NCBI GenBank assembly: GCA_963804165.1
Contig: CAWDPO010000014.1
Location: forward strand, 64,001 to 128,000
Reading direction: 5' to 3'
DNA: 64,000 nucleotides
From: an uncultured delta proteobacterium
Lineage (GTDB): Bacteria > Desulfobacterota > Binatia > UBA9968
Shown here in pieces: positions 2,368-34,225 of the stretch; position 1 is the first letter of the stretch; each line of letters begins with the position of its first letter. The notes beneath the pieces were generated by a model. That model searched no databases. It saw nothing but the letters and a program-made list of their open reading frames with translations, and was not told the origin of the DNA. The translations under genes were made by a program, and so were the position numbers.

Positions 2368-2561
2368 GTTCGATTTCCTTCGGTCATCGATTTTACATTT
2401 CTAGCAGAAGACGATTCTGTTTCCGAGTGCCGATTTAAAAAACCGGGACGCAAACAACGGCCAATCGGCACGCCTTGAACGCAGACGGTCATCTGAGATA
2501 GCTATAAGCAATTAGTGATTCGAAGGTTAGCATAGCTTTCAAGGAGTGAGGAAACAGGAAA

Positions 2562-3600
2562 ATGGCGGACGAACACAAACACGAACACAAAGGCGAGCAC
2601 GCGCACGACCACAAGCAAGATCACGGCCACGAGCACGGTCATTCCCATGGGCCCGACGACCAACATACGCACGCGCCCGATCACGGCCATTCGCACGATC
2701 GCGGCCAGTCCCATGACCACGGCCATGATCACGATCATTCGCATGAACACGCGCATGGTCACGAGCACGAGCACGAACACGGCTCCTCCCACGGTCATAG
2801 CCACGATCACAAGACGCGTTTTCACGATCCGGCGCACGCCGCCGAATTCGATCGGCGAGCGCTGTCGGGCATCCGCAGTTCGTTGACGGAGAAGTTAATC
2901 GAAATGTTAACCCTTAAAGGCGGCGAGCTCGTGCTCGATCTTGCAACGGGCACCGGAAGGGTCGCACGGCCGCTGTCCAAACATATGAAAGGTGGTCGCA
3001 TCGTCGGCGTAGATCAGGCGCTGGCGATGCTCGACGTCGGTCACCAGCACGAGGATGCGATTCCGCACTACAATCAGAGCGCCGGCGAGGCCGATAAGTT
3101 GCCCTTCAAAACCAACACTTTCGATCGCGCGTTTCGTCTCGTTTAGCCTGCATCATTTCAGCAATCCGTCGGGTGTCGTCGGCGAAGTGCTGCGCGTGCT
3201 CAAGAACAGCGGTCGCTTCGTGGTGCTCGATCCGATCATCGAAGAGGCGAAAGACGCCGTCGATATCGCACTCGAAACGAAGATCAATCAAGTTTTTCGC
3301 CGCACCCACGGCGATGATTTCCGCTTCCACACATCGAGCAGCATTCAGCGCTTGCTGACCAAAGCCGGTTACCGCGTGCCGCGCTGCAACGTGCTTTCTT
3401 TCTCCTTCAATCAAGAAGGCATGGACGGCATCCCCACCGGGCGCCACTGGCTCGAAGCCGCGCTGGAACTGGAAAAAGAAGCGCCGGAGCTCGCCGAGCG
3501 CATGAAGAAAAACTATTTCACCTGGCACGCCCACGGCGACCATGTGCACGTGAAGGGCGCGTTTTCTTACGCGTTAATCACAGGCGTCAAGCCGGCTTAA
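2562..3600 (+). CDS. Class I SAM-dependent methyltransferase (UbiE-like) with His-rich N-terminal tail; frameshift near 3135
   Basis: VLDLATGTG motif I and LPFKTNTFD in ORF 2562..3146; continues FSLHHF...EVLRVLKNSGRFVVLD in ORF ending 3600. Confidence 0.85.
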
Positions 3601-3607
3601 AAAGACT

Positions 3608-3632
3608 GTAGGGGCGCAGCATGCTGCGCCCT
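3608..3632 (+). repeat. GTAG-type REP-like palindrome, copy 1
   Basis: GTAG followed by the perfect palindrome GGGCGCAGCA|TGCTGCGCCC; near-identical copy at 9564-9588. Confidence 0.75.
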
Positions 3633-3652
3633 CTGATTAGGAGAGCGATGAC

Positions 3653-3913
3653 GTGAAGAAAGCCGACTTCCGAACTTTCTACCGCGACGCGCATGCCGTC
3701 GAATGCCTAACCGAGCGCGAGAAGATGCTCATCGGTCTCACTGTCGCCATGATGCGGCTCTGCGATCCGTGAGTGGATAGGCGCCTTGCGGACGCAAGGA
3801 AAGCGGGGATGACGGAAGAAGAGCTTGATGCGGCAGTGGATGTGATCGCCGCGGTGGATGCGGGCGTGCTGCAGTCGTTGAACCAGAGGATCAAAGCGAG
3901 GAACAAGGGGTAA
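3653..3913 (+). CDS. AhpD/carboxymuconolactone-decarboxylase-like selenoprotein (CxxU), copy 1, 86 aa; absent from ORF track
   Basis: AGGAGA RBS, GTG start; MKKADFRTFYRDAHAVECLTEREKMLIGLTVAMMRLCDP-TGA(3770-3772)-VDRRLADARKAGMTEEELDAAVDVIAAVDAGVLQSLNQRIKARNKG*. LTEREK.LI.L.VA...CxxC...A.KAG.TEEEL is the CMD/AhpD pattern; hairpin just downstream of TGA. Confidence 0.85.
3773..3800 (+). promoter_or_regulatory. Putative bacterial SECIS hairpin
   Basis: TGA-GTGGATAGGCG-CCTTGC-GGAC-GCAAGG: 6-bp stem with G-starting loop 17 nt after the UGA; retained in copies 2, 4 and 6. Confidence 0.65.
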
Positions 3914-4101
3914 CTCCCGCAGCCGCCGAGGACCACCTGGGTGGTACAAAGCCGGTGCTACCGAGACACTGAACAGCGTTTTCAACCAAGCTGGTCAGAA
4001 TATGCGCGAGGCAATCGAGTCCGATCTTGAAGGCTCGCGGCACGACTAAAGCGTTCTCACGCCCGAGCTCGTATTCCACCTACATTGACGTAACTGTTTA
4101 A

Positions 4102-4260
4102 CCTCCGTTGTCGGGGTTGGTAGAGGGCTGGGGCGAATACCCGAAGGGCAATGATGAGCCGAGAATTCGGGCTACGTTACTTCGAGGAATTCGTACCGGT
4201 CAGCCGGCGGGCAGCGACCAGTTTATCGAAGTGATTGAACAGTTAGAGGTCGTGGTCTAA
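4102..4260 (+). pseudogene. C-terminal remnant of a REP-associated (Y1/RAYT-like) transposase
   Basis: PPLSGLVEGWGEYPKGNDEPRIRATLLRGIRTGQPAGSDQFIEVIEQL resembles the L..LV.DW..YL...RTGRP.G...FI..IE.L tail of Y1 transposases; no HUH part. Confidence 0.5.
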
Positions 4261-4340
4261 TAATGCGCACAGCCAGGCGCCTACTGAAATGCATCATGAG
4301 AAATTAGTATTATGCCCCGGAATTCTCGCCACAACTCAAC

Positions 4341-7300
4341 ATGAGTGAACTTAAGAGACACCCTGCCAAGCTGCCGCCGGAGCAGGCGGCGCTCCGAGCG
4401 AAGTGTTTTCACCCGTCGGGGACATTTGTCGAGTTTCCAATCGAAGACGTTGAGACATCAATCCCCGCCCGGTTTGAGAAGATCGTACGCAAATATCCCG
4501 ACCGAATCGCGATCAAATCAGCAAATCAACTGCTCACTTACACCGAGCTCAACTCCCAAGCCAATCGAATAGCCCACGCGATTGTAGATCAGCAAGGAGA
4601 TGAGGCGGAACCGATCGCGGTATTGCTTGAAAGCGCGATGACGTTGATGGCAGCGACAATCGGGGTTTTAAAGGCTGGGAAATTTGTTGCGCTTCTGGAT
4701 GCTTCCTTCCCGGATTCGCGTAATGCGGCCATATTGGAGGATTCTCAAGCGCAAGTGGTGATCACCAACCGAAAAAATGCTCCGCTAGTTAACAGAATCA
4801 CAAACCGTGATTGTCGATTGATGGATTTCGAATCCGCCAATTCGGGAACTTCGGACGATGACCTGTGGTTATCTGTCTCACCGAACGCGCTCGCATTCCT
4901 TGTGTATACGTCCGGTTCCACTGGACAGCCCAAAGGCGTCATGCAGGATCATCGGAGTCGCTTGCATCAATATAAGTGGAGTACAAACACGAATCACATT
5001 TGCGAACACGATCGGGCGAGCCTTCTGACTTCCGGTACGTCCAGTTCGGTGGTTGTTAGTCTTAGGACCTTGCTTAATGGTGCGATGCTTCTTCCATTTG
5101 ATATTCGTAGGAGAGGAGTCGACAATCTCGCCGGCTGGCTCTTGGGCGAGAAAATTTCCGTTTGCGTAATCAGCTCGCCACTTTTCCGCAGCCTTTGCGA
5201 AAGCCTAACGGGAAAGGAAGGATTTCCCGATCTTCGCCTCATCCGGTTGAGTAGCGAAACAGCTTATAAGAATGATTTTTGTCTTTATAAGAAATTTTTC
5301 CCCCCAGAATGCCTTCTTACCAATGGGTTATCCCCCACTGAAGCTGGAGCGTTGACAGACTATTTCATGGACCAAGAGACAGAGATTCCCGGTGACGAGA
5401 TACCCGTGGGTTATCCCTTGGAAGATATAGACATTTTGTTACTGGATGACCAGGGCAAGGAGGTTGGCTTCAATCAGGTGGGCGAGATAGCCGTGAAAAG
5501 TCGTTATCTCTCGTCGGGCTATTGGCGAAGGCCAGCGCTTACCGAAGCCAAATTTAGACGCGCTCTCGACGGCAAGGACAGCCGTCTTTATCTCACCGGT
5601 GATTTGGGACTTATGCTTCCTGACAGTTGTCTCCTTCACAGGGGACGCAAGGATTTCCGAGTGAAGGTCCGGGGCTATGGGGTCGAGATGGCGGAAGTAG
5701 AGACTGTTCTCCGGGATCATGCGGCCATCAATGACGGAGTTGTGGTGGCGCGCCCAAATGAATCGGGTGAGGCTCGTTTGGTTGCTTATTTTACTTCTCC
5801 CCGGAGGCCCGGCCCCAGCGTGAGCGAGTTGCGCCGTTTCTTGCAAGAGAAGCTTCCCGACTACATGATCCCGTCGGCCTTTGTGAGGCTAGACGCGATA
5901 CCTTTGACTCCAAATGGCAAGGTAGACCGAGAAGCGCTTCCCGACCCGAAAAACTCAAGACCTAGTCTCAATGCTCCGCCCGTCGCACCGCGGACTTCCA
6001 AGGAGGAGAAATTAGCAAAGATTTGGGCGAAGGAGCTGCACATCGATCAGATAGGAGTTCATGACAATTTTTTCGATTTAGGCGGCCATTCTCTATTAGC
6101 AATGCGAGTCATCTCGCAGGTTCGCGACCATCTACAGGCTGAATTGTCCCTGATTCAGTTTTTTGAAAGTCCGACTGTGGCTGCTCTCGCCGCTCGAATT
6201 GAACCGGCTCGTTCACCGCAGGACGGGACACCGGCTCCTTTTATACAGCCCGCTTCAAGGGACGGAAAACTCCTTCTTTCTTTTGCCCAACAGAGGCTAT
6301 GGTTCATGCACCAGCTCGACCCAGAAAGCTGTGCGTACAACCTGTTTTCTGCAACTCAGCTCACGGGCCGACTCAACGTGACGGCGTTGGAGCAGAGTTT
6401 CAACGAGATCATTGGGCGCCACGAGGCCTTGCATACCGTCTTTAGGTCGGTCAACGGACAGCCGTTCCAAGTTGTTCTCCCAGCTCTGACTATCAACCTT
6501 CCTGTCGTGGAATTGCGAGATATCGTTTCTCCGGCTGAGCGAGACGCGGAGCGTCGCCGCCTTTGCGCTGAGGAGGCCCGGCGACCCTTCGATCTGGCCA
6601 ACGGCCCTTTGCTACGGGCCACTTTACTAAGATCGACCGACGAAACGTACGTTCTGCTGCTGGTCCTACACCATATTATTTTCGATGGTTGGTCTAGAGC
6701 AGTCTTAGATCAAGAAATTTCCATAGCCTACGAGGCCTTGTCCTGCGGCCAATCTCCATCGCTGCCCGTGTTGCCGCTTCAGTATGCAGACTTTGCTCAA
6801 TGGCAGCGCCAGCAGCTACACGGCGAGGCGCTCGAAGGGCAACTGGCCTACTGGAAAAAGCAGCTTGAAACGCTCTCAATTTTGCAGTTGCCGAGTGATC
6901 GGCCACGACCAGCGATTCAAACTTCTAGAGGCGCAAGACAATCTTTCACGCTGCCCGAAGAACTCGTCGCGGGACTCAAAATGTTTGGGCGCCAGGAGGG
7001 CGCCACTCTTTTCATGACGTTGCTAGCGGCCTATCTGACATTGCTGGGCCGTTACACGGGGCAGAACGATATCGCGATTGGGGCTCCCATCTCCGGCCGG
7101 AACCGTAGCGAGTTCGAAAGTTTAATCGGGCTCTTTCTTAACATGTTGGTCCTGCGCACCGACTTGTCTGGCAATCCAACCTTTCGAGAGCTGCTCTCTC
7201 GCGCCCGAAAGGTTTGCCTGGAAGCTTATGCGAACCAGGATGTCCCTTTTGAAGAACTCGTCCAAGAACTGCAGCCGCTACGCAGTCTAAGTCACAATCC

Positions 7301-9473
7301 ACTATTTCAAGTAACCTTTGCGCTACAGAATAGCCCAACGAGCCTTCTCAAGCTGACCGGTATGACCGCACGAGATCTTAATCTGGGGTCAGGAATAGCA
7401 ACTTTTGATTTACACCTGTTCATGGTCGAGGAGGAGACAACCTTGAGCGGTTGGTTGGTTTATAACACGGATCTGTTTGATGCCGCGTCGATCGCCCGGA
7501 TGGTCAGGCATTTTCAAATGATACTGGAAGGCGTCGTCGCTAATCCCGACCAGCATATCTCGGATCTACCGCTACTCACGGAGGCCGAAAAGCATCAACT
7601 TTTGGTGGAGTGGTGCGATAGAAGGGAAGAATACACAAAAGACAGGTGTCTGCACCAGCGGTTTGAGGAGCAGGTAGTGCGTACGCCTGAGGCCCTCGCC
7701 GTGGTCTTTGAAGATCAGCAATTGACCTACCGAGAATTGAACCGGTCCGCAAATCGCATAGCGCGTCGATTGCAAGGACTGGGAGTTGGGCCTGATGTTC
7801 TGGTCGGCCTGTACGTCGAACGATCCATCGAGTTGATCATCGGCGTTCTGGGAATTCTCAAAGCCGGCGGGGCCTATGTTCCGTTCGACCCCAGTTATCC
7901 AGCGGATCGAGTAGAGTTCATGCTGAGAGATGCCGACGTATCGGTGCTGCTGACGCAGAAGCACCTGTCCACTCAATTACCTGCATGCGATTCCGCAGTG
8001 GTATACCTTGATGCGGAACATTTGAAAAATTCGTCCGACGACGCGAATGAAGCAGATCTTGAAAGCAGTGCCAAGCCGGATGATTTGGCATACGTGATCT
8101 ACACTTCCGGCTCTACCGGCAAGCCCAACGGCGTGTTGATCACGCATCGTAGTGCTGGCGCTTTTCTCAATTGGGCTCACAGCGCGTTTACCCAAGAAGA
8201 TTTCGCCGGCGTCATTGCATCGACCTCGATTTGCTTTGACTTATCCGTGTTTGAAATTTTTGCTCCGCTTACAGCCGGCGGGCAGGTTATCCTGGTTGAA
8301 AACGCTTTGGCGCTAGCCCACGTGGACGAGGCAGTGGCGCCAACTTTAGTGAACACGGTGCCGTCGGTCATGGCCGAGCTGTTGCGCCTTGGCGGGTTGC
8401 CGAAGTCGATTCGCACCGTGAATCTGGCCGGCGAGCCACTTAAGGCGAGCCTGGTTCGGCAGATCCATCAACAAACTTCCGCACAGCAGGTCTATGATCT
8501 TTATGGACCGTCGGAGACCACGACGTACTCGACTTACACGCAGAGAACGGCCGATGGTGCTCAAACGATTGGCCGTCCGATCGCCAACACGCAAATCTAT
8601 ATCCTGGATCCGCATGGGAATCCCGCGCCGATCGGCATACCGGGAGAGATTTACATTGGCGGGACGGGTTTAGCGCGCGGCTATTTGAATCGTCCTGAGC
8701 TGACTGCGGAGAAATTCATTGCCAATCCGTTCAGCACCGAGCGCGGGGCAAGGCTTTACAGGACCGGAGATTCAGCGCGGTATTTACCCGACGGAAATAT
8801 CGAGTTCCGCGGGCGCCTGGACAACCAAGTCAAGATCCGGGGATTTCGCATTGAGCTAGGGGAGATCGAAGCCGTGCTCAGTCAACACTCCAGACTCCGA
8901 GAGGCTGTCGTGCTCGTTAGAGAAGACAATCCTGGCGAGAAGCAGTTAGTGGCCTATACCGTCGCCGCTGCCGGCTTCATGCCTTCGGTCAATGAACTGC
9001 GCGCCTTTCTACAGCAGAAACTCCCGGAATACATGGTACCGTCCGCGTTTGTCATGCTCGTCAGCCTTCCATTTACTCCCAACGGTAAGGTGGACCGAAA
9101 GGCACTACCCGCACCACACCAAACCAGGCCTGAGCTGGAGGAAACTTTCGTCGCTCCGCGGACACCGACCGAGCAAACGCTCGTCGCAATATGGGGCAAA
9201 GTGCTCAAACTCGAAAAGGTCGGCATCCACGACAACTTCTTCGAGTTGGGAGGACATTCGTTACTTGCCACGCAAGTCATGTCCCGAATACGCAGTGCTT
9301 TTTCCATCGACCTGCCGCTACGCCGCATGTTCGAATCGCCAACGGTGGCGGAAATTGCGGTCATTATAACAGAAAGCCGAGCACAGCCTGTGAGCGAAGC
9401 AGCGTTTGCGCGTATGTTGTCTGAGGTAGAAGTCACGACCGAGGAAGAAGCGGAAAAAATCCTTGCAAAATAG
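4341..9473 (+). CDS. Non-ribosomal peptide synthetase, A-T-C-A-T, no TE
   Basis: Two YTSGSTG.P A3 motifs, TGD motifs, two FF.LGGHSL carrier motifs, HHIIFDG condensation motif, PLTPNGKVDR A10. Confidence 0.95.
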   Translation: MSELKRHPAKLPPEQAALRAKCFHPSGTFVEFPIEDVETSIPARFEKIVRKYPDRIAIKSANQLLTYTELNSQANRIAHAIVDQQGDEAEPIAVLLESAMTLMAATIGVLKAGKFVALLDASFPDSRNAAILEDSQAQVVITNRKNAPLVNRITNRDCRLMDFESANSGTSDDDLWLSVSPNALAFLVYTSGSTGQPKGVMQDHRSRLHQYKWSTNTNHICEHDRASLLTSGTSSSVVVSLRTLLNGAMLLPFDIRRRGVDNLAGWLLGEKISVCVISSPLFRSLCESLTGKEGFPDLRLIRLSSETAYKNDFCLYKKFFPPECLLTNGLSPTEAGALTDYFMDQETEIPGDEIPVGYPLEDIDILLLDDQGKEVGFNQVGEIAVKSRYLSSGYWRRPALTEAKFRRALDGKDSRLYLTGDLGLMLPDSCLLHRGRKDFRVKVRGYGVEMAEVETVLRDHAAINDGVVVARPNESGEARLVAYFTSPRRPGPSVSELRRFLQEKLPDYMIPSAFVRLDAIPLTPNGKVDREALPDPKNSRPSLNAPPVAPRTSKEEKLAKIWAKELHIDQIGVHDNFFDLGGHSLLAMRVISQVRDHLQAELSLIQFFESPTVAALAARIEPARSPQDGTPAPFIQPASRDGKLLLSFAQQRLWFMHQLDPESCAYNLFSATQLTGRLNVTALEQSFNEIIGRHEALHTVFRSVNGQPFQVVLPALTINLPVVELRDIVSPAERDAERRRLCAEEARRPFDLANGPLLRATLLRSTDETYVLLLVLHHIIFDGWSRAVLDQEISIAYEALSCGQSPSLPVLPLQYADFAQWQRQQLHGEALEGQLAYWKKQLETLSILQLPSDRPRPAIQTSRGARQSFTLPEELVAGLKMFGRQEGATLFMTLLAAYLTLLGRYTGQNDIAIGAPISGRNRSEFESLIGLFLNMLVLRTDLSGNPTFRELLSRARKVCLEAYANQDVPFEELVQELQPLRSLSHNPLFQVTFALQNSPTSLLKLTGMTARDLNLGSGIATFDLHLFMVEEETTLSGWLVYNTDLFDAASIARMVRHFQMILEGVVANPDQHISDLPLLTEAEKHQLLVEWCDRREEYTKDRCLHQRFEEQVVRTPEALAVVFEDQQLTYRELNRSANRIARRLQGLGVGPDVLVGLYVERSIELIIGVLGILKAGGAYVPFDPSYPADRVEFMLRDADVSVLLTQKHLSTQLPACDSAVVYLDAEHLKNSSDDANEADLESSAKPDDLAYVIYTSGSTGKPNGVLITHRSAGAFLNWAHSAFTQEDFAGVIASTSICFDLSVFEIFAPLTAGGQVILVENALALAHVDEAVAPTLVNTVPSVMAELLRLGGLPKSIRTVNLAGEPLKASLVRQIHQQTSAQQVYDLYGPSETTTYSTYTQRTADGAQTIGRPIANTQIYILDPHGNPAPIGIPGEIYIGGTGLARGYLNRPELTAEKFIANPFSTERGARLYRTGDSARYLPDGNIEFRGRLDNQVKIRGFRIELGEIEAVLSQHSRLREAVVLVREDNPGEKQLVAYTVAAAGFMPSVNELRAFLQQKLPEYMVPSAFVMLVSLPFTPNGKVDRKALPAPHQTRPELEETFVAPRTPTEQTLVAIWGKVLKLEKVGIHDNFFELGGHSLLATQVMSRIRSAFSIDLPLRRMFESPTVAEIAVIITESRAQPVSEAAFARMLSEVEVTTEEEAEKILAK

Positions 9474-9563
9474 GGGTCAATGAAGAAAGCGATTCTGGCA
9501 CGGGAAGGCGGGGCATCTATTCCAGGGCAAGTGCTCAGTCATGAGTGCTGAGGTTTCGCATCA

Positions 9564-9588
9564 GTAGCGGCGCAGCATGCTGCGCCTT
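9564..9588 (+). repeat. GTAG-type REP-like palindrome, copy 2
   Basis: GTAGC-GGCGCAGCATGCTGCGCC, same position relative to selenoprotein copy 2 as in copy 1. Confidence 0.7.
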
Positions 9589-9609
9589 CTGCGTGACAGG
9601 AGCAATACT

Positions 9610-9924
9610 TTGACGAAAGCCGATTTTCGAACCTTTTATCGTGACGCGCATGCCGTCGAATGCCTAACCGAGCGCGAGAAGATGCTCATCGGTCTCACTG
9701 TCGCCATGATGCGGCTCTGCGATCCGTGAGTGGATAGGCGCCTTGCGGACGCAAGGAAAGCGGGGATGACCGAAGAAGAACTCGACGCGGCGGTCGACGT
9801 GATTGCCGCGGTGGACGCGGGAGTGTTGCGGTCGTTGAATCAGCGGATCAAGCAGAGGGGGCAAAAGCTAAGAATCTACTTGACTGCACCTGCACTACGA
9901 AACCGGTCCCTGAGTCCTGGTTAA
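9610..9924 (+). CDS. AhpD/CMD-like selenoprotein (CxxU), copy 2
   Basis: AGGAG RBS, TTG start, MTKADFRTFYRDAHAVECLTEREKMLIGLTVAMMRLCDP-TGA(9727-9729)-VDRRLADARKAG...; 9643-9770 identical to 3686-3813. Confidence 0.8.
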
Positions 9925-9966
9925 CCTCTTGACCTCCGTATGCTGGTCCTGTCTTAATCGGTCTCA

Positions 9967-10251
9967 ATGTCCATTAAGTTTGAATGGGATTCTCGTAAAG
10001 CTCGACAAAACCTTCGAAAGCACGGGATAGATTTTGATGAGGCGACCACAGTATTTGCCGATATACTCTCGGTTACGATCCCCGATCCCGATCACTCGGA
10101 GGACGACGAACGCTGGGTGACGATGGGTCTGTCGAATCGCCACCGTCTGCTGGTTGTGGTACATACTGAAGAAGAGGAAACGATCCGGATCATTAGTGTC
10201 CGAGCAGCAGACCGCCTTGAGCGGAGGAAACATGAAGAAGGGGACTCGTAG
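9967..10251 (+). CDS. brnT: BrnT family toxin
   Basis: FEWDSRKARQNLRKHGIDFDEATTVF...HSEDDERW...LLVVVHT...IRIISVRAA. Confidence 0.92.
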   Translation: MSIKFEWDSRKARQNLRKHGIDFDEATTVFADILSVTIPDPDHSEDDERWVTMGLSNRHRLLVVVHTEEEETIRIISVRAADRLERRKHEEGDS

Positions 10252-10522
10252 AAACGACAAAATGCGCAATCACTATGACTTTACCGGTGGAGTTCGCGGC
10301 AAGTACGCGCACAGGTACGCCGAAGGCACCAATGTGGTCGTGCTTGATCCCGACGTGGCGCGGTTGTTTCCTAATCGTCAGGCGGTAAATGAGACGCTGC
10401 GGGCGGTAGCCCAGATTGTTGAGATACAGGAGCGAAGGCAGGACGGCATTAAAAAGGCCGTCGCACGTGACCGCCGCACGGGCGTTGGTCGGAAAGATCG
10501 TGAGCGGTCTCGTTCGGGGTAG
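10232..10522 (+). CDS. BrnA-like antitoxin
   Basis: Overlaps toxin end; MR..YDFTGGVRGKYA...VVLDPDVARLFP...AVNETLR pattern typical of BrnT partners. Confidence 0.8.
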   Translation: MKKGTRRNDKMRNHYDFTGGVRGKYAHRYAEGTNVVVLDPDVARLFPNRQAVNETLRAVAQIVEIQERRQDGIKKAVARDRRTGVGRKDRERSRSG

Positions 10523-10600
10523 GCGGGTGATCAGCAGTGCTAGCCGAAATCAAGCAATAAAGACCGGTTATAACGGCTTCCTTTGTAAAAGCCTTTTTAT

Positions 10601-10658
10601 CGAGCGTGATGCTCATCGGTCTCACCGTCGCGATGATGCGGCTTTGCGATCCATGAGT
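10601..10658 (+). repeat. Selenoprotein gene fragment, copy 3 (codons ~21-40, ends just after TGA)
   Basis: GATGCTCATCGGTCTCACCGTCGCGATGATGCGGCTTTGCGATCCATGAGT vs copy 1 GATGCTCATCGGTCTCACTGTCGCCATGATGCGGCTCTGCGATCCGTGAGT. Confidence 0.85.
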
Positions 10659-10870
10659 ATGAGCCTTTACGGGAAACGCGAAACAGGAAACAACTGCGTC
10701 CCAATCCTTTGGCTCCCTGGGAATTGCGCGTCGGTTCGTTGCGGGTTTTCTATGAAGTAGATGCTGGGGAACCGGGCCTCGTGAATGTCCTCGCTATCGG
10801 AATCAAAAAAGGGAATCTCCTGATCATTGCAGGTAGGAAATACACATATGAAGGCAATGAAACTGCCTAA
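10658..10870 (+). pseudogene. 5'-truncated RelE/ParE-family toxin
   Basis: YEPLRETRNRKQLRPNPLAPWELRVGSLRVFYEVD...VNVLAIGIKKGNLL; N-terminus replaced by selenoprotein fragment. Confidence 0.75.
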
Positions 10871-11148
10871 AAGAGATCCAATCATTTCTCGAGGTTGCGG
10901 AAACCGCGAAAGAAGACACGCTGGTCTTTACCAAGAAGAAACGACCGGTCGCTGCTCTGGTCTCTCTCCGAAAGGTGGACCGGGATTCGCTTGCGTTGAG
11001 TACCAATCCGCAGTTTTTGAGAATCATCGAGATCGCGAGAAAAGAATTTCGGGCGGGCAAAACGATTTCAATCGAGGCATTACAGAAAAAGTTTGGCGTA
11101 AGGATGCGGGCTTCGAGAAAAGCGCGCCGCGGCGCGGCCCCGCGTTAA
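10848..11148 (+). CDS. Phd/YefM-like antitoxin (frameshift in A-run ~10870)
   Basis: MKAMKLPK then +1 frame EIQSFLEVAETAKEDTLVFTKKKRPVAALVSLRKVDRDSLALSTNPQFLRIIEIARKEFRAGKTISIEALQKKFG. Confidence 0.7.
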
Positions 11149-11150
11149 CC

Positions 11151-11382
11151 GAGGTGTCCGATTCCGGCGACGTGCGGTCGAATGCCTGCTCGAACGCGAG
11201 AAGATGCTGATCGGTCTTACCGTCGCGACGATGCGGCTCTGCGATCCGTGAGTGGATAGGCGCCTTGCGGACGCAAGGAAAGCGGGGATGACGGAAGGAG
11301 AATTAGATGCTGCCGTCGATGTGATCGCCGCGGCGTGCTGCAGTCGCTAAATCAGCGGATCAAGCAGAGAAGCAAGACGTAA
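11151..11382 (+). pseudogene. Decayed selenoprotein gene, copy 4
   Basis: CGCGAGAAGATGCTGATCGGTCTTACCGTCGCGACGATGCGGCTCTGCGATCCG-TGA(11249)-GTGGATAGGCGCCTTGCGGACGCAAGG...QRIKQRSKT*; damaged 5' end and ~10-nt internal deletion. Confidence 0.85.
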
Positions 11383-11451
11383 AGATTGGAGTCGAGGACT
11401 ACATCGGGACCATATGACAGAAGGTCTGTAGGTCATTGGTTAGGCATTGCT

Positions 11452-11889
11452 TTGGCGAGTACTGTAGAAATTCCATTTACCGGCGGTTGCGCGTGTGGCG
11501 CTATCCGCTACGAATGTCTCGCATCACCACTTCGAATGCTCAATTGCCATTGTCGCGATTGCCAAGTTGCGAGTGGAAGCGCGTTCTCGCCAACCTTGAT
11601 TATGGCAAGTAGCGCCGTGAAGGTGACGAAAGGCCAGCCCACACACTTTGAGAAGCTCGCCGAAAGCGGCAACACCGCGAAGCGTGCATTTTGTTCCGCC
11701 TGCGGCACGCCATTGTTTGCGTCGAGTTCGGCGGGGGCGGAATATGTTGGTGTAAGAGCGGCGAGCCTCGACGATCCCAGCTGGTTCAGGCCGGAGGCGA
11801 ACGTCTGGGTCGGAAGTGCCCAACCGTGGGATTGCCTCGATCCAACAATACCAAAATTCGAAAAGAATCGACCGCATGCCAAGCAGTGA
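11452..11889 (+). CDS. GFA (glutathione-dependent formaldehyde-activating/CENP-V) family protein
   Basis: GGCACGAIRY, CHCRDCQ, FCSACGTPLF, SLDDPSWFRP...SAQPWD; flanked by GTTAGGC (11439) and GCCTAAC (11900). Confidence 0.92.
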   Translation: MASTVEIPFTGGCACGAIRYECLASPLRMLNCHCRDCQVASGSAFSPTLIMASSAVKVTKGQPTHFEKLAESGNTAKRAFCSACGTPLFASSSAGAEYVGVRAASLDDPSWFRPEANVWVGSAQPWDCLDPTIPKFEKNRPHAKQ

Positions 11890-11918
11890 GAAGGCAAGTG
11901 CCTAACACCTGATCCCAT

Positions 11919-11996
11919 GTCGATGTGATCACCGCGGTGGACGCGAGAGTGCTCCAGTCGTTAAACCGGCGGATTAAGCAAAGGAGCCAGATATAA
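11919..11996 (+). repeat. Selenoprotein gene 3' fragment, copy 5
   Basis: GTCGATGTGATCACCGCGGTGGACGCGAGAGTGCTCCAGTCGTTAAACCGGCGGATTAAGCAAAGG = VDVITAVDARVLQSLNRRIKQRSQI*. Confidence 0.8.
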
Positions 11997-12204
11997 CTTC
12001 CGAAGCGGACGGCCAAAAAAGAAAAAATGTGATTCCGATCGAAAAGGTCCCCTCTCACCTCATTCCCCATAAGCCGCCATCTCTGGAGCCATCAACCTTG
12101 ACGTATAGTAAGAGAATGTATGACGCGCCATCAGAACCATGTCGATCAAAACCCTTCCGCCCAGCTCCCATGTCGCTCGTTGACGCAGCTGTTGCATTTC
12201 ACGC

Positions 12205-13731
12205 ATGGAATTCAAGCGCCTCGTTGCTGACATGACAGAGAATCCAGGGCGTGGAATCGTCCACGCGCGGTTTATTCACTATTTTCTCCTTCTCTTACCG
12301 ATGGGGTTGGCGGCGGCTCTCAGCTTCTATTCGATCGCTGACAAGAGCTTGTGGTTAGACGAAGCGTTCAGTGTAGCTCTGGCGCGCCTTGATTGGTCGG
12401 AAATGTGGCGAGTGATAACCGTCCGCGAGTCCAACATGGGACTCTACCACGTGTTGCTCCACTACTGGGTGCAGCTTGGCACCGGGGAATTTGCGGTCAG
12501 ATCCCTGTCGGCAATCACGGCAATCGTCTCGATTGCTCCTGTATATGCGATAGGCGCTCGCCTGTTCGGAGTAAACACGGGAATCATCGCCGCGTTATTG
12601 CTGGCGATGAACGCTTTCTTCATTCAATATGCCCAAGAGGCCAGAGGTTACGCTCTTGTTCTTCTGCTCTCAGCCGCCTCGGCATACCTCTTTCTTAAAG
12701 CGATCGATAAACCCTCTGTAAAGAGCTGGGGCGCTTATGCTGCAATTGGCGCTCTCTCCATTTATGCGCATTTCTTTGGCGCATGGGTCATAGCGGCGAA
12801 CTTTCTGTCCGGCTTAGCCGTCCGAGGGCTTGCACAAAAGAGGAATCTCGTCGTCAGCAACCTAGTTATCGCCCTTCTCGTCAGCCCTCTGCTTGTATCT
12901 ATCCTGGCCCCGCATGCTCATGATTCGCATCTCGGTTGGCTAGCGAAGCCATCGCTCCAGACATTCACTCGTTTTTTCAACGCGCTCACCGGTTATGGAG
13001 GCCCCGCCCTGGTCATCGTCCACTCCGTAGTCTGCGGCTTCGCTCTGCTCTCGGCATCGGCCCGGCAGCGAAGAGCCCACGGCAGTTTGATCACCTGGAA
13101 CTATGCTTTTTTATGCACTTGGCTTTTCCTGCCCGTGCTTGGGAGTTTTTTGCTCTCAATCGTATTCAAACCGATCTTCCACCCTCGATATCTGATCATT
13201 TCGCTGCCGCCACTTGTATTGATTGCGGCAGCGGGTGTGCAGAACCTGCGGCCGGCGTGGCTCAAACTCGCTACTGTGCTGTTGCTCTTGGTCCTTTCGA
13301 GCCGGGGTCTTGTGGCGTTGTATTCGGGGCGTTGTTGCCAGAAGGAGAACTGGAGAGCAGCCACCAAGTATGTGCTCGACAATAGCGTGGCCGGTGATGG
13401 TATGGTATTTCAAGCGCCGTACGCCCGGATAGCATTTGAATACTACTTGCAAGCGCTGGGTTCTCAATCCAGGGCCCTGCAACCAGTAGTACCATCAGAC
13501 CCTTGGGGGACACTCGATCTGACCAAGAGACGGTCCGAATGGCTGCATCGCAGCCCGCAAGAGGACCAACGGCTATGGCTCATTTTGGTTTACCAAAGTT
13601 TCGCAAAAGGACCGAGCCCCGGGATTTCCGGTTGGCTGCCGGCAAGCTTCCAAAGCCAGTACTGTTTTCGGGGAATGCAGTCTTTTCAATCGATTGAAGT
13701 GATTCAGTTCCAGCCTTGCTCACGGCCATAG
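12205..13731 (+). CDS. GT-C fold membrane glycosyltransferase (PMT/ArnT-like, GT39-type)
   Basis: SLWLDEAFS, LY..LLH.W, EFAVRSLS, YAQEARGY motifs; multiple TM segments. Confidence 0.88.
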   Translation: MEFKRLVADMTENPGRGIVHARFIHYFLLLLPMGLAAALSFYSIADKSLWLDEAFSVALARLDWSEMWRVITVRESNMGLYHVLLHYWVQLGTGEFAVRSLSAITAIVSIAPVYAIGARLFGVNTGIIAALLLAMNAFFIQYAQEARGYALVLLLSAASAYLFLKAIDKPSVKSWGAYAAIGALSIYAHFFGAWVIAANFLSGLAVRGLAQKRNLVVSNLVIALLVSPLLVSILAPHAHDSHLGWLAKPSLQTFTRFFNALTGYGGPALVIVHSVVCGFALLSASARQRRAHGSLITWNYAFLCTWLFLPVLGSFLLSIVFKPIFHPRYLIISLPPLVLIAAAGVQNLRPAWLKLATVLLLLVLSSRGLVALYSGRCCQKENWRAATKYVLDNSVAGDGMVFQAPYARIAFEYYLQALGSQSRALQPVVPSDPWGTLDLTKRRSEWLHRSPQEDQRLWLILVYQSFAKGPSPGISGWLPASFQSQYCFRGMQSFQSIEVIQFQPCSRP

Positions 13732-13768
13732 ATGTGGGAGACAAGGGGACGGGAACCTTTTGCCTTCC

Positions 13769-13951
13769 CGAGCAGGTGAAGATGATAACGGTCCGACCGT
13801 CACGATGCTGCGGCTCTGCGATCGTGAGTGGATAGGCGCCTTGCGGACGCGAGGAAAGCGGGGATGACGGAAGAAGAACTCGACGCCGTCGTGGACGCGG
13901 GAGTTTTGCAGTGGCTGAATCAGCGGATCAAACAGAGAAACCAAGACCTAA
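13769..13951 (+). pseudogene. Decayed selenoprotein gene, copy 6
   Basis: GCGGCTCTGCGATCG-TGA(13825)-GTGGATAGGCGCCTTGCGGACGCGAGGAAAGCGGGGATGACGGAAGAAGAACTCGACGC...; ~18-nt internal deletion. Confidence 0.85.
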
Positions 13952-13967
13952 AGAATGGAGTGATGCA

Positions 13968-14971
13968 GTGTTGGAGTCATGGATTCGTTGTCGATTCGCT
14001 GTCGTAGCGATTAACTGCTGGTTTTTCGCATTCATTCTAGCTGTGACGCCGGCCTTAGCCCTAGACAAGCTGCGCATTTCCTACGCTTCTGTCACTGGCA
14101 ACACCGCTGGGATTACTTATATCGCCCAGCGCGCCGGGTTATTCGAGAAACAGGGGCTGGACGTTGAATTGATTCTGATCACCGGTGGGCCGGCGTCGAT
14201 CAGCGCTTTGTTGAACGCCGACGTTGATCTGGACATGCGCGCGCCGGTCGCGGCGCTGCAGGTGATGGCGCATGGAGTCAAGCTGACTTTTTTACTTTTT
14301 CAATCGAATACCCTCGAATACGACGTGGTGACACGGCCGGAGATCAAAGACATCAAGCAGCTTAAAGGCAAAAAAGTCGGCATCATCCGCTTCGGTGGCA
14401 TTTCCGAACTGATGGTGCGCTATCTGTTTCAAAAACTGGGCTTGGACGCGGACAAGGACATCGCCATTGTCCAGGTTGGCCAGGCACGCTTTGTCGCGAT
14501 GGAAAAGGGCGCCATCGACGCGACGGTTTTGCCTCCGCAGAGTCCGCCTATGCCAAGCGCAATGGCTTTCGCGTTCTCGACATGCCGACTCTGCCGTTTT
14601 TTGGCAGCACGATTGTCGCCGCGCCAGCTGTCGCGGCGAAGCGAGCCGATGTGATGACGCGGTACATGAAAGGCTATTTGGACGGGGTGCGGTTCTTTCT
14701 CAGCGAGCGAGAGCGGAGCAGCCAGTACCTCGCCGATCTGTTGCGCACGAAAGACCGCGATATGATCGATCTCGCGTACAGGAATCACCCGCAGCATCAG
14801 ATGGGCCGAAAGCCCTATCCGGACATGAACGCGGTCAAGGCGACGCTCGACATCATGAGCTCCCGCGATCCATTGGTGAAGAAACTCAAGGCGGAAGAGC
14901 TGTTCACCCTTGGCTATTTAAAGCAGCTCGATCAAAGCGGCTACATCGATCAATTGTATTCGGGTAAATAG
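13968..14971 (+). CDS. NMT1/SsuA-like ABC substrate-binding protein (frameshift ~14535)
   Basis: GLFEKQGLDVEL, LKGKKVGIIRFGG; continuation ORF 14582..14971 ends LDQSGYIDQLY; start approximate. Confidence 0.85.
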
Positions 14972-15046
14972 AGAAGCGGGCGAAAAGGCACTACATGGGT
15001 TCGCCTGTGGCGAAAGCCGCGCAGTGTTTTACGGCTGCTCGTTTGA

Positions 15047-15649
15047 TCAGCTAATCGATTTCAACCATTCCTGCCATCGCTCCATGTCACGGAATAAGGG
15101 CAGCGAGTCCGTTGTCGCTTCACTTCGCACTAGCTCGAAGCGTTTTTTGAAAAGCTGCTCGGCTTCGGGCTCGGTAAGAGGAAACGGCGGACCCGACGAC
15201 GGCCTTTGTCCATACAAAAAGACACCGATCAGTCTGCCTCGGGGCAACAGAAGATCCGCCATTCTGGTTACATACTCGGGCCAGCGCGTGGGAGTCATCG
15301 AACAAAGAAATGTCCGTTCGTAGATGAGGTCGAATCGGCGCTCGCCGAAGTCGTGCGTAAAGAAGTCTCCCAGAACAATCCGTTCAGCTAGAGACCCGAG
15401 CACCCGTTTGGCTTGGTCGACAGCGGCGGGAGAAAAATCTATTGCTGAAACATCGTAGCCGGCGGCATGGAAAGCCTGAATCTCGTAGCCGGAGCCACAT
15501 CCCGGAATTAATACTCTGCCGGGAGCAGAAGATCTCTCAAGAAATAATTTCAAGGCCGATGGAACACCACCGAAGTCCCAGGGCGTCTTACCCGTGACGT
15601 AGCGGACCGTCCAGAAATCTGGCTGGTTATTATCGGAAGGATTGTCCAT
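15047..15649 (-). CDS. Thiopurine S-/halide methyltransferase (TPMT) family
   Basis: FW..RY..GKTPWD, RVLIPGCGSGYE, FDLIYERTFLCSM, GPPF. Confidence 0.88.
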   Translation of the reverse strand: MDNPSDNNQPDFWTVRYVTGKTPWDFGGVPSALKLFLERSSAPGRVLIPGCGSGYEIQAFHAAGYDVSAIDFSPAAVDQAKRVLGSLAERIVLGDFFTHDFGERRFDLIYERTFLCSMTPTRWPEYVTRMADLLLPRGRLIGVFLYGQRPSSGPPFPLTEPEAEQLFKKRFELVRSEATTDSLPLFRDMERWQEWLKSIS

Positions 15650-15815
15650 AGTAGATGCCTTAAAAGCTAAGCGATGCGGTTGCCAAAGGCAACGAGTATT
15701 AATTGTCGCAATTGCCACTCATGTGTTAGGTATGCGGGCTGGAAGACTGGAGTGGTGGATTCGGAATTAGTACGGCTGCGACTCATTTCGAACCATGCCT
15801 GAAGAGGAGGGTCGG

Positions 15816-17501
15816 ATGAATACTAATCTTCGTCGAACGATTTTTCTGAGCTTGCTCTTCTGCCTGTTTTTCTCACCGGTACTTTGGGCGCAGACTCGGG
15901 CGATCGCGATTGTCGGCGGCACGTTGATCGACGGGACCGGGCGGGCGGCTGTCGAAGACGCGGTGGTTATTTTTCAAGGCGGGCGCATCCAGGACGTGGG
16001 CAAGCGCGGTGAGGTCGCGATTCCCCGCGGCGCTGAGGTGATCGATGCCAAGGGTAAGACGGTGTTGCCGGGGCTGATCGATGGGCATTGCCACTACTGG
16101 GAGTGGATCGGCGAGCTTCATCTCGCCTATGGTGTGACCACTTGCCCCGACATCAATAACAGTCCGACCGAATGGATCATCGCGCAGAAGGAAGGCATTC
16201 AAAAAGGCAAGATTCGCGGGCCGCGCTTGTGGATTTCCGGCCACGCGCTCGATGGGCCGCGGCCGCAGGGCATGCCGGAGCAACGCTGGCAGCGCGGCAG
16301 CATCATCGTGCGCACCGAAGACGAAGCGCGCAAAGCCGTCCAGGAACATGTCAACAAAGGCATGGATGGTTTCAAATTTCTCGAACGTCTCGCACCCAAC
16401 GTTGCCAAAGCCGCCGCTGAGGAGGCGCGCCGCTTAGGCAAACCGGTGATCGGCCATTCAATCAACATTTTCGACGCCGTCGATGCGGGTTATACTTCGG
16501 TGGAGCACTCGTGGGCGGTCATGTTCACGACGATCCGCGATGTTCAGAAGCGCGCGGAAGTCGACATGAACCGCATGACCGGCAAGGTGGGGACGGTCGA
16601 GGCGCACAGCAACATGGCGCCGGAGCAGTTCGACGAGATCGTCAAGGCGATGGTCGCCAAGGACGTCCATTGGAGCCCGGCTTGGGCGACGCAGTTTCGC
16701 GCGCTCTCGCCGCGCGCGGCGGATATGAAAAAGCGCGAGCTCGCGACGCTCAAAAATCCGCGCTTGAGTTACCTGCCGCCTTACAACTTGGAAGCGGTGG
16801 AAGGTTATTTCGCCGGCTACGAGAAGATGACCCAGGAAAGACGTGAAACCTTCGATAACGCCTACAAGATGGTTCAGGACTTTGCCCGTCGCTATGTCGC
16901 CGCCGGCGGCAAAATGCACTCCGGCTCGGATCCGGGAAGCTTGCTGCCGGCATACGGTGTACACGCCGAGTTCGAGCTTGCCATCGACGCAGGCTTGAGC
17001 CCGCTGGTGGCGATTCAATCGGCGAGTCTCAACGTCGCCAAGACTTGGGGCAAGGACAAAGACTTCGGCAGCGTCGAGAAAGGCAAAGTCGCGGATCTGG
17101 TGATCGTGCGCGGCGACGTCATGAGTGATATCAGCGCGACACAGAACGTCGAAAAAGTTTTCATGGACGGCAAGGCGGTCGATACTTCGTTCAACCCGAA
17201 CTATCGCAATCCGATTCCGCGGACGATTGCGGATCGCTACGTGACGAATCTGACTCAGCTCTCGCCCGCGATGCTGGTCGAAGGCAATACTGGCTCGGTT
17301 AAACTTACCGGTGTGAATTTTCGTCCGACGCACCAAGTGCTGATCAATGGCAAGAAAGTCGAGAGCCGGTTTGTCAGCGGCAGAGAATTGGAGCTCAAAG
17401 TGCCTTCCTTAAGGGCCGGAACTCACAAGATCATAGTGGTCGATCCTGGTATCCCGACCTCGGAGTCGGCCCCGGTTTATCTGGTCGTGTCGTTCAAGTA
17501 G
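15816..17501 (+). CDS. Exported amidohydrolase family protein with C-terminal IPT/TIG-like domain
   Basis: Signal peptide ...PVLWAQ; VLPGLIDGHCH, GSDPG, GSVEKGKVADLVIV; beta-rich C-terminal extension. Confidence 0.9.
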   Translation: MNTNLRRTIFLSLLFCLFFSPVLWAQTRAIAIVGGTLIDGTGRAAVEDAVVIFQGGRIQDVGKRGEVAIPRGAEVIDAKGKTVLPGLIDGHCHYWEWIGELHLAYGVTTCPDINNSPTEWIIAQKEGIQKGKIRGPRLWISGHALDGPRPQGMPEQRWQRGSIIVRTEDEARKAVQEHVNKGMDGFKFLERLAPNVAKAAAEEARRLGKPVIGHSINIFDAVDAGYTSVEHSWAVMFTTIRDVQKRAEVDMNRMTGKVGTVEAHSNMAPEQFDEIVKAMVAKDVHWSPAWATQFRALSPRAADMKKRELATLKNPRLSYLPPYNLEAVEGYFAGYEKMTQERRETFDNAYKMVQDFARRYVAAGGKMHSGSDPGSLLPAYGVHAEFELAIDAGLSPLVAIQSASLNVAKTWGKDKDFGSVEKGKVADLVIVRGDVMSDISATQNVEKVFMDGKAVDTSFNPNYRNPIPRTIADRYVTNLTQLSPAMLVEGNTGSVKLTGVNFRPTHQVLINGKKVESRFVSGRELELKVPSLRAGTHKIIVVDPGIPTSESAPVYLVVSFK

Positions 17502-17517
17502 TCGGAGAGGGACGCAT

Positions 17518-34148: not shown

Positions 34149-34225
34149 GGTCGCATAGCTCAGATGGTTAGAGCGCGCGCCTCACATGCGCGAGGTCGTA
34201 GGTTCAAGTCCTACTGCGACCACCA
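34149..34225 (+). tRNA. tRNA-Val(CAC)
   Basis: GGTCGCA/TGCGACC acceptor stem, TAGCTCAGATGGTTAGAGC D arm, CGCGC-CTCACAT-GCGCG anticodon arm, GGTTCAAGTCC T arm, encoded CCA. Confidence 0.97.

Follow-up and report, generated by a model that had tools for sequence, protein, structure and literature searches.

Can an array of gene cassettes grow beside a fixed gene without an enzyme dedicated to the task? Known cassette arrays and tandem islands, among them integrons, tRNA-anchored islands and accretions of integrative and conjugative (ICE), integrative and mobilizable (IME) and cis-mobilizable elements (CIME), need a dedicated recombinase and a short attachment site. The question is raised by a locus in an uncultured delta proteobacterium from soil, of the class Binatia (GenBank assembly GCA_963804165.1). 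The window, i.e. the whole stretch of DNA analysed, comprises 64,000 nt (positions 64,001 to 128,000 of contig CAWDPO010000014.1); positions given below are those of the window unless another contig is named. It contains six copies of an AhpD/CMD-like gene encoding a selenoprotein with a CxxU motif. All six are located on the + strand at one locus and separate five different cargos. The original prediction, made from the sequence alone, saw in this arrangement an integron-like or tandem-accretion hotspot with a protein-coding gene as repeat unit. In the following, G, L, C and f numbers designate genomes, loci, contigs and families, respectively.

Comparison with related genomes and metagenome contigs provides good support for a cassette array beside a fixed gene, in which the repeats are copies of this very gene and the units are shared and reordered among strains. 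We give about even odds (a probability of roughly 0.5) to the view that AhpD copies undergo homologous, RecA-type recombination and thereby exchange cassettes, with a selenocysteine insertion sequence (SECIS) block that is invariant at the nucleotide level as anchor.

Six copies of one gene at a single locus

The copies were detected by a sensitive BLASTN search of the window with positions 3560-3990 as query; repeat finding within the window yielded the same repeat families. Both confirmed the predicted sites, the coordinates of which were correct to a few bases (Table 1). Reading frames and alignment revealed, again as predicted, that the two left copies are intact and the four right copies damaged. 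In copies 1 and 2, the frame is open throughout except for a single in-frame TGA. Both pass the cut-off for the CMD domain PF02627 (E 1.8e-10 and E 2.4e-10, respectively), and TIGR00778 (ahpD_dom) was matched slightly under its cut-off (E 8.9e-6). The product of copy 2 has 104 aa and a longer C-terminal tail. The sequence upstream of this copy (9542-9606) matches the spacer between AhpD and the methyltransferase gene to its left in L107, L135 and L172.

In the source genome, 18 matches to the repeat were found at E<=0.01. Five of them are copies at the locus, and the remaining 13 are matches of 22-31 nt to a palindrome upstream of copies 1 and 2 that resembles a repetitive extragenic palindrome (REP). 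The rest of the 7.5 Mb assembly (46 contigs, 81% complete) contains no further AhpD gene copies. A genome-wide scatter in the manner of a miniature inverted-repeat transposable element (MITE) is ruled out, since the gene copies are confined to the locus. The palindrome is headed by GTAG and folds into a hairpin of -19 kcal/mol (z -2.98); its 13 further short matches lie on six other contigs (C3, C9, C17, C35, C41 and C45), some of them as inverted pairs.

A conserved site with variable content

The array is flanked by a methyltransferase gene on the left and by a substrate-binding protein (SBP) gene on the right, downstream of which two amidohydrolase genes are located. In 13 loci of the genus, the methyltransferase gene adjoins AhpD, and the SBP gene and the two amidohydrolase genes are found farther on. 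The methyltransferase-AhpD pairing is also present in more distant Binatia. The gap between AhpD and the next conserved gene varies widely: It amounts to ~5 nt in G007, 0.5 kb in G011, 1.8 kb in G018, 2.5 kb in G004, 4-6.4 kb in G003, both G019 loci, G029 and G014, and 10 kb in the window. The compact state is probably ancestral, because in four contigs of more distant Binatia AhpD lies only 20-94 nt from an amidohydrolase gene. In its 3' flank, copy 6 agrees with G007, in which AhpD lies directly against the SBP gene, and copy 1 retains the junction to the methyltransferase gene. Judged by gene order, the locus after AhpD is an insertion hotspot in the genus. Conserved flanks with variable cargo and copy number in relatives had been proposed as a test of the prediction, and the outcome is in its favour. 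Altogether, 46 of the 61 genomes searched have an AhpD match, most of them in a single copy (G035 and G079 are rows of these genome tallies; no conclusion depends on either). G025 and G012 carry a second, partial AhpD copy 0.8-1.9 kb downstream of the first.

Several observations concern the surroundings of the gene. In L054 (G003) and L056 (contig C14 of G019), ~1.1-1.2 kb are inserted between methyltransferase gene and AhpD. This means, the upstream side of AhpD can take insertions as well. In G019 (7% contamination), the whole locus occurs twice, in differing versions on separate contigs. A tRNA-Val(CAC) gene follows directly after AhpD in family f3 (L061-L065) and ~550 nt after it in L099. 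In the genus, its distance from AhpD ranges from 8.7 kb (G007) to 20 kb (window, tRNA at 34149-34225). Before tRNA-Val became separated from AhpD, insertions may already have taken place in the surroundings of the gene.

Recurrence of the cassettes in metagenomes

The scan of metagenome contigs comprised 80 loci, 33 of which extend at least 1.5 kb past the main AhpD copy. A second AhpD copy on the same strand is present in 16 of the 80. By their inter-copy content, these 16 fall into ten kinds, with L107/L108, L127/L131, L134/L165 and L117/L125 as near-duplicates; relatives are mostly short contigs, and related loci are not independent of each other. Four of the five cargos of the window recur as AhpD-cargo-AhpD' units (AhpD' being the following copy) in other positions and orders. 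The nonribosomal peptide synthetase (NRPS) gene is found between AhpD copies in L117 and L125 with 94.5-95.4% identity, and 5.2-5.5 kb of the inter-copy segment could be aligned. The toxin-antitoxin (TA) pair BrnTA follows AhpD in L133 (81% over 561 nt). The ParE/RelE-type toxin and its antitoxin are located in L135 (83%), where the toxin has its full length and the alignment runs unbroken from 10656 to 11371 into copy 4. The GT-C glycosyltransferase gene follows a full AhpD copy in L127 and L131 (89-90%, aligned from 12275/12283 to 13862 into copy 6). The GFA cargo has no homologue among the fetched loci. Between copies, these loci also contain HicA/HicB, DUF4160/DUF2442, Phd with PIN, an SH3-domain protein, and a TIR-domain protein accompanied by four further genes.

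The order of the units differs between loci. GT-C follows the first full copy in L127/L131 and comes last in the window. In L131, a HicB-like stretch comes after GT-C; in the window, the order starts with a HicB remnant. RelE holds the first place in L135 and the third in the window. The order BrnTA-AhpD'-RelE in L133 is that of the window. All five cargos of the window and 10 of 12 readable cargo types (read from lists of open reading frames, with no gene calling) have the same orientation as AhpD; the exceptions are a transposase-like gene of G012 and the genes of L142.

A genome-wide self-comparison for other gene-copy arrays yielded none among the two clusters opened. The cluster on C12 (30871-38618) consists of a 90-210-nt repeat (85-92%) present four times within 8 kb, which looks like a MITE, and the cluster on C5 is composed of pieces of paralogous binding-protein genes. 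Both were discarded.

Junctions and the unit of exchange

The repeat does not end with the gene: It runs ~40 nt beyond the AhpD stop codon. In many copies, a motif of two similar 9-nt halves is located 10-35 nt past the stop codon, and after it the sequences diverge into the cargo. Examples of the motif are window positions 11395-11420 as well as L127, L131, L107, L137, L142, G018, G025 and G029. A genome-wide scan found no full match and three half-site matches, so that the motif was rejected as a dispersed element.

The C-terminal tail and 3' flank of an AhpD copy are specific to the cargo downstream of them. The stretch preceding RelE is the same in L135, where it belongs to the first, full copy, and in L133, where it belongs to the second, partial copy. 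Likewise, the stretch preceding DUF4160 is alike in G025 and L136. The junctions between a cargo and the next copy are also kept (DUF4160-AhpD' in G025 and L136, antitoxin-copy 4, GT-C-copy 6). Since junctions are kept at either end, the moving unit would be a cargo flanked left and right by AhpD sequence, and the exchanges that delimit it would fall within the AhpD homology.

L136 comprises a methyltransferase gene (90.5% to the window), AhpD (88%), DUF4160/DUF2442 and then a copy starting at gene position 52. From this position on, L136 is 96.5% identical to the window over 2.5 kb, which comprise copy 1, the HicB remnant and the NRPS gene. At the junction, the second copy is G025-like for a few bases and copy-1-like beyond. 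The comparison shows a similarity breakpoint inside AhpD, as one exchange would leave it. The predicted growth at the left end, by which older units are pushed to the right, fits L136: An extra DUF4160/DUF2442 cassette lies next to the first copy, and the copy that used to be first has lost its 5' end. In the window, copies 1 and 2 are identical over 128 nt in mid-gene (columns 34-161) and diverged at either end, which is the pattern of a gene conversion tract.

The partial copies start at varying gene positions (50, 52, 52, 57, 58, 58, 61, 75, 81, 110, 110, 128, 129, 144), with three of them at 128-130 (G012, the second locus of G003, and L172). Even for one type of cargo, HicAB, the repeat boundary is found at 50, 58 and 110. 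A mirror form occurs in two loci: Here, only a 5' piece (positions 3-43) is present, and it lies upstream of the cargo. Several of the seemingly partial copies are once longer copies with internal deletions, and the junction between copy 3 and the toxin is a deletion that has taken the rest of the copy and ~35 toxin codons.

A segment fixed at the nucleotide level

AhpD-like 2 with CxxU (pfam02627) is a known selenoprotein family (PMC2398784), with which the repeated gene shares the CMD/AhpD domain, the CxxU motif and the in-frame UGA. The TGA occupies the same alignment column in all 35 full-length sequences of the order, one row of which (G037) is out of frame as cut. The alignment of the 35 orthologues, the identity table and the tree include G005 (L020) as a row, on which no conclusion depends. 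A 16-nt hairpin sequence starts 12 nt past the TGA and is identical in 34 of the 35 orthologues. In folds of copies 1 and 2, it forms a 6-bp G+C-rich stem with a GGAC loop, with z of only -1.1 and -0.6, respectively. The stem is invariant in the orthologues and therefore offers no covariation, and an Rfam scan of 2500-15500 gave no match at E<=1. Third codon positions are most conserved in the hairpin region (0.87 in columns 121-150, compared to 0.58-0.76 in most other bins). The longest exact match between pairs of orthologues starts mostly at column 128-130 and has a median length of 25 nt; even when copy 1 is compared with members of other families, 21-28 nt are left. We infer that an RNA structure fixes the hairpin stretch at the nucleotide level. 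Machinery for decoding selenocysteine is encoded in the genome, with tRNA-Sec on C24 and SelA and the SelB wing domain on C16.

Profile matches of AhpD extend to the C-terminal AhpD domain of two methyltransferase-AhpD fusion selenoproteins, NF045649 (MduS) and NF041537, under the full-length cut-offs, and the upstream methyltransferase weakly matches their N-terminal part. By these profile matches, the methyltransferase-AhpD pair looks like a split form of such fusions. A partnership of this kind would explain why the AhpD copy that adjoins the methyltransferase gene remains intact. A search of viral contigs for relatives of the AhpD protein found none, and a limited literature search on Binatia and selenocysteine found no paper. 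In PMC2398784, one read with adjoining Prx-like 1 and AhpD-like 2 genes is reported; the passages of that paper on AhpD-like proteins mention neither repeated copies nor a role as recombination anchor.

Proposed exchange of cassettes by homologous recombination

How could such an array arise? We propose that a lineage-specific cassette array has grown directly downstream of a conserved AhpD-like CxxU gene, the putative partner of the upstream methyltransferase. One unit would consist of a cargo, a whole or partial AhpD copy and ~40 nt of AhpD 3' flank. Units would be gained, lost and reordered by homologous, RecA-type recombination in which an imported AhpD copy pairs with one already in place. 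Imports of this kind might be linear pieces of a relative's DNA or circles released from another array by looping out. After a crossover within the gene, a full-length, selectable AhpD would stand at the left. The previous copy, pushed to the right and now redundant, would decay by deletion, and TA cargo might stabilise the array against repeat-mediated deletion. RecA-type recombination, the direction of events and the stabilising role of TA pairs are what we infer from the comparisons.

AhpD would lend itself well to anchoring: The nucleotide sequence of its UGA-SECIS segment is held constant throughout the order, so that even distant relatives share 21-44 nt of perfect identity. Homologous recombination is favoured because boundaries vary and both whole copies with upstream sequence and the mirror form occur, and because a conversion tract and one AhpD-internal breakpoint are seen, with no recombinase near. 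The original prediction had left the choice between a recombinase acting in trans and RecA-driven capture; of these two putative mechanisms, the latter fits the variable boundaries better. A more far-reaching view is that the selenoprotein gene is the recombination anchor of an integrase-free cassette system, in which UGA-SECIS identity plays the role of attI/attC or of a tRNA and host recombination swaps and stacks the cassettes. The segment would have to remain constant at the RNA level and would thereby provide all Binatia species with a common stretch of perfect identity, and the TA, defence, enzyme and NRPS cassettes would each bring along a piece of the gene. We regard this as possible, though somewhat less likely than not, and advance it tentatively.

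Several points weigh against exchange by homologous recombination. The evidence is all comparative, and no recombination event or intermediate was seen directly. Identity of cassettes between lineages is 81-90% versus 75-90% for the backbone, and much of the pattern could reflect old inheritance and loss instead of recent transfer. An AhpD tree (261 nt, 38 sequences; copies 3 and 5, the second copy of G012 and the piece from the second locus of G003 were left out as too short) is unresolved near the window copies, with supports of 8-59%, and the origin of each copy, by duplication in place or by import, cannot be assigned from it. The flank motif, the clustering of partial starts at 50-61 and the common orientation of most cargo types would also suit a site-specific system. 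The searches for recombinases covered the tyrosine type. Furthermore, the origin of the first cargo-plus-repeat unit is unexplained by homology alone.

Alternative explanations

The first alternative is site-specific accretion. A recombinase encoded elsewhere would act on a site in the 3' part of AhpD or its 3' flank and insert circular cassettes with partial AhpD as attachment site, resembling integron attI x attC recombination or decayed integrative elements (CIMEs) mobilised in trans. Small recombinase-free cassettes that mostly lie on the AhpD strand would fit such a system, as would the new unit beside the first copy of L136, the motif after the stop codon with divergence beyond it, and starts of partial copies clustered at 50-61 and 128-130. 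The genome even provides candidates, since a profile search found 21 Phage_integrase matches in addition to 18 Y1_Tnp matches (RAYT/IS200-like, i.e. resembling REP-associated tyrosine transposases and the insertion sequence (IS) IS200). However, none of the 21 is located on contig C14, and tblastn with 10 of them found none in the window (serine recombinases were not searched). The predicted lack of a visible integrase holds for the window and its contig, as far as tyrosine recombinases are concerned. The same ten queries gave a single match in the 137 fetched loci (1,022,728 nt), and this match, in G053, is a frameshifted tyrosine integrase adjoining tRNA-Val(CAC) in family f3. Here, the tRNA-Val that adjoins AhpD is used by an integrase island. 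The island (C1:1620500-1643500; L186/L187, L064, L065) has 20.8 kb with RHS-repeat genes and IS copies and is bounded by 939-nt direct repeats (86%) that contain AhpD and tRNA-Val(CAC). The G053 integrase was rejected as an AhpD-targeting element, the island being a tRNA-Val island. Site-specific accretion is also at odds with boundaries that differ within one cargo type, with the upstream spacer and REP carried by copy 2, and with the absence of the 3'-flank motif elsewhere in the genome. The mirror-form pieces share no segment with the 3' pieces. Starts at 50-144, two loci with positions 3-43 only, and a copy with upstream spacer leave no common crossover core unless later deletions are invoked, which could mask one. 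We consider site-specific accretion unlikely.

The second alternative is an old array with ordinary hotspot turnover. An ancient tandem duplication of AhpD would have been filled and trimmed by unrelated insertions and deletions, and the repeats would be passive scars that cause deletions only. Cassette divergence about equal to backbone divergence fits this explanation, and so do the order shared by L133 and the window and the decay through many independent deletions. Moreover, a base after the TGA is common to copies 1, 2, 4 and 6, i.e. all window copies with that part, and was seen in none of the relatives' rows inspected. Yet the orders are not collinear, GT-C preceding the HicB-like gene in L131 and following it in the window, and one and the same cargo lies right after the first full copy in L135 and L127/L131 and deep in the array in the window. 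In addition, similarity in L136 changes exactly at an AhpD copy, and cargo-specific AhpD tails travel with their cargo. All in all, we think it rather improbable that turnover of this kind accounts for the array.

That repeats caused a chimeric join of strains is highly improbable: The source is a metagenome-assembled genome (MAG) of 81% completeness and 5% contamination with probable indel errors, and the copy 4-GFA and GFA-copy 5-GT-C junctions are without independent support, but independent sequences reproduce the remaining junctions, and the copies differ by 12-25%, so that collapse or mis-join would not be easy.

Reliability of the assembly

In four soil runs from different studies, Logan contigs connect copy 1 through the HicB remnant with the NRPS start (3776-4612, 3787-5252), cover the NRPS gene and link its end to copy 2 (8466-9651). 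In these four runs, there is no cover of 11948-13683 and very little of 9778-11947, which speaks neither for nor against the assembly of these parts; all runs were used as Logan contigs, and the best one shared 0.32 of words (none at least half). L125 is collinear with 3401-9825. The junctions BrnTA-AhpD'-RelE, antitoxin-AhpD' and GT-C-AhpD' are reproduced by L133, L135 and L127/L131, respectively, and the junction of copy 6 with the SBP gene by G007. The doubt that the assembly might be chimeric, raised with the prediction, is thus answered for most junctions by contigs that bridge them independently.

Single-base frameshifts at ~3135, ~10872 (in an A-run) and ~14528 split the methyltransferase, antitoxin and SBP genes, respectively. 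At 3135 and 14528-14530, contigs of other soils have one base fewer or more than the window (one fewer at 3135), and in relatives the methyltransferase gene is a single frame. By this comparison, the three frameshifts are probably assembly indels, so that small frameshifts in this genome should not be taken as decay. A single contig of the X2 run joins 3502, at the methyltransferase end, to 14244 in the SBP gene, with 8 other letters between them. It could originate from a strain without AhpD and the whole array, or represent a paralogue.

Cargos and flanking genes

The features of the locus are compiled in Table 1.

Table 1. The AhpD array and its flanks (positions in the window; BLASTN matches are those to the query 3560-3990)
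Feature	Position	Strand	Evidence and state
Left flank: His-rich SAM (S-adenosylmethionine) methyltransferase	2562-3600	+	Pfam/NCBIfam methyltransferase matches; two frames here (2562-3146, 3055-3600)
REP-like GTAG-headed palindrome, 28 nt	3608-3635 and 9564-9591	none	Upstream of copies 1 and 2; repeat finding, family D10
AhpD copy 1	3653-3913	+	Intact, 86 aa, C-D-P-U; TGA 3770-3772; SECIS-like hairpin 3784-3799
HicA/HicB toxin-antitoxin remnant	3939-4103	+	Frameshifted; tblastn with L107 HicB, E 1.4e-5, two frames
50-aa open reading frame	4108-4260	+	No Pfam/NCBIfam match, no longer homologue; present in L125, absent from L117
Cargo 1: two-module NRPS (A-T-C-A-T), 1710 aa	4341-9473	+	Pfam AMP-binding x2, PP-binding x2, Condensation
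AhpD copy 2	9542-9924	+	Own upstream spacer and REP 9542-9609; intact frame 9610-9924; BLASTN 9564-9851, 88%, E 8e-103
Cargo 2: BrnT toxin 9967-10251 and BrnA-like partner 10232-10522	9967-10522	+	Pfam BrnT_toxin E 8.5e-28
AhpD copy 3	10568-10658	+	Decayed middle piece; 5' traces with internal deletions back to ~10568; core 10608-10658 stops 2 nt past TGA; BLASTN 10608-10658, 92%, E 6e-16
Cargo 3: ParE/RelE-type toxin 10657-10870 and antitoxin 10848-11148	10657-11148	+	Six-frame comparison with L073, L075 and L076
AhpD copy 4	11150-11383	+	Near full length; 5' deletions and 10-nt deletion in 3' third; TGA and hairpin retained; BLASTN 11173-11382, 83%, E 1e-62
Cargo 4: GFA-family protein	11386-11889	+	Pfam GFA E 2.7e-33
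AhpD copy 5	11919-12006	+	3' end of gene only, with ~10 nt of 3' flank; BLASTN 11919-12006, 76%, E 1e-12
Cargo 5: GT-C type (PMT_2) membrane glycosyltransferase, 508 aa	12205-13731	+	Pfam PMT_2 E 1.8e-11
AhpD copy 6	13753-13951	+	Decayed, several deletions; at ancestral junction with SBP gene; BLASTN 13761-13941, 76%, E 1e-37
Right flank: SsuA-like SBP	13911-14971	+	Two frames here, probable assembly indel near 14528
Two amidohydrolase genes	15795-18963		Downstream of SBP gene

Pfam bore out the labels that the prediction had given to NRPS, BrnT, GFA and GT-C/PMT_2, and what had been called RelE is a 5'-truncated toxin of the ParE/RelE type. The supposed RAYT remnant at 3.9-4.3 kb had to be abandoned. 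Neither a RAYT-like protein of G012 nor the Y1 transposases of the own genome matched there, and tblastn identified 3939-4098 as a frameshifted HicB remnant. At the nucleotide level, 3997-4103 matches L107 (81%, E 3e-22), the open reading frames of which match Pfam HicA_toxin and HicB_lk_antitox. None of the 18 Y1_Tnp matches of the profile search is located on contig C14. In G012, a RAYT-like gene lies inside the AhpD array on the opposite strand; it is the first of the two exceptions to the common orientation mentioned above.

The BrnA-like partner of BrnT has no Pfam/NCBIfam match and is named from its position only. The toxin of cargo 3 is without ~35 N-terminal codons, and its antitoxin has a 1-nt frameshift in an A-run near 10872. 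The full-length toxin of L135 (99 aa) matches ParE_toxin (E 6.8e-5); G076 (L073) is one of three loci used for reading the full-length toxin, and no conclusion depends on it. Cargo 5 has an NCBIfam mannosyltransferase match under its cut-off. A promoter and terminator scan remained at chance level, with 5 promoters found versus 5.1 expected. The N-terminal stretch of the methyltransferase gene (2558-2811) is of low complexity and rich in His, Asp and Glu; it contains 13 overlapping copies of a 44-nt repeat (family D2) that are offset by 12, 18 or, once, 42 nt.

Comparison with known systems

Chromosomal integron arrays consist of small, mostly co-oriented cassettes rich in TA pairs and small enzymes. 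The cassettes are bounded by repeats and start from a fixed site, and their content is strain-variable. The array in the window shares the co-oriented, TA-rich, repeat-bounded cassettes, the fixed site and the variable content. It differs in having copies of a gene as repeats instead of attC hairpins, unfixed boundaries, no intI, and a 5.1-kb NRPS gene as one of its cargos. An integron intI was not found beside the array in tyrosine-recombinase searches of contig and window. Nor were attC sites seen, as judged from the repeats themselves, which are AhpD-homologous stretches of 51-288 nt with variable ends. With no IntI, no attC and varying boundaries, the array is not an integron in the strict sense. 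Minimal mobile elements of Neisseria are different cargos between the same conserved genes, without mobility genes, and their exchange is thought to occur by homologous recombination via the flanks. Conserved flanks, different cargo between strains and the lack of mobility genes are found here as well. In Neisseria, one cargo is present at a time and the genes on its two sides differ from each other, whereas here one flank is repeated inside the site, so that cargos stack into an array.

The target-gene-derived direct repeats that bound each unit are also a feature of ICE, IME and CIME accretion in tandem at gene 3' ends, as described for streptococci (PMC5704250). There, too, the elements stand in tandem, the target gene is intact at one end, newer units adjoin the intact gene, and units without recombination genes persist (PMC5704250). 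However, a site-specific integrase generates those repeats as att sites, and at least some of the elements carry it (PMC5704250), whereas the ten queries revealed no tyrosine recombinase in any array or flank (other types were not searched). Moreover, the repeats in the window array range from ~40 nt to the whole gene with upstream spacer, the boundaries vary, and the units have only 0.5-5.7 kb. In the tycheposon arrays of Prochlorococcus islands, elements are separated by partial tRNAs, incoming elements push older ones inward, and degenerate remnants are scattered (bioRxiv 10.1101/2020.12.28.424599). The anchor there is a tRNA gene and tyrosine recombinases are borne by the elements; here, it is a protein-coding selenoprotein gene, and no recombinase was seen.

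Two features set the window locus apart from all systems compared: the nature of its repeat, and the fact that it apparently does without a dedicated enzyme. It arrives at the same outcome as recombinase-dependent arrays, i.e. stacked, variable, TA-rich units beside a fixed gene, with copies of a protein gene as repeats and no recombinase in sight. If host homologous recombination suffices, such arrays could start from any gene whose nucleotide sequence is kept constant, and a constraint by RNA structure, as in SECIS, would do. Uncultured soil bacteria would thereby have an inexpensive way of exchanging genes as modules. In addition, the locus suggests why TA pairs dominate such sites: Cassettes with such pairs would be shielded from deletion between repeats. 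A test is feasible, as the units are small and present in many soil metagenomes. Among the known systems, the locus is best described as a variant of tandem accretion.

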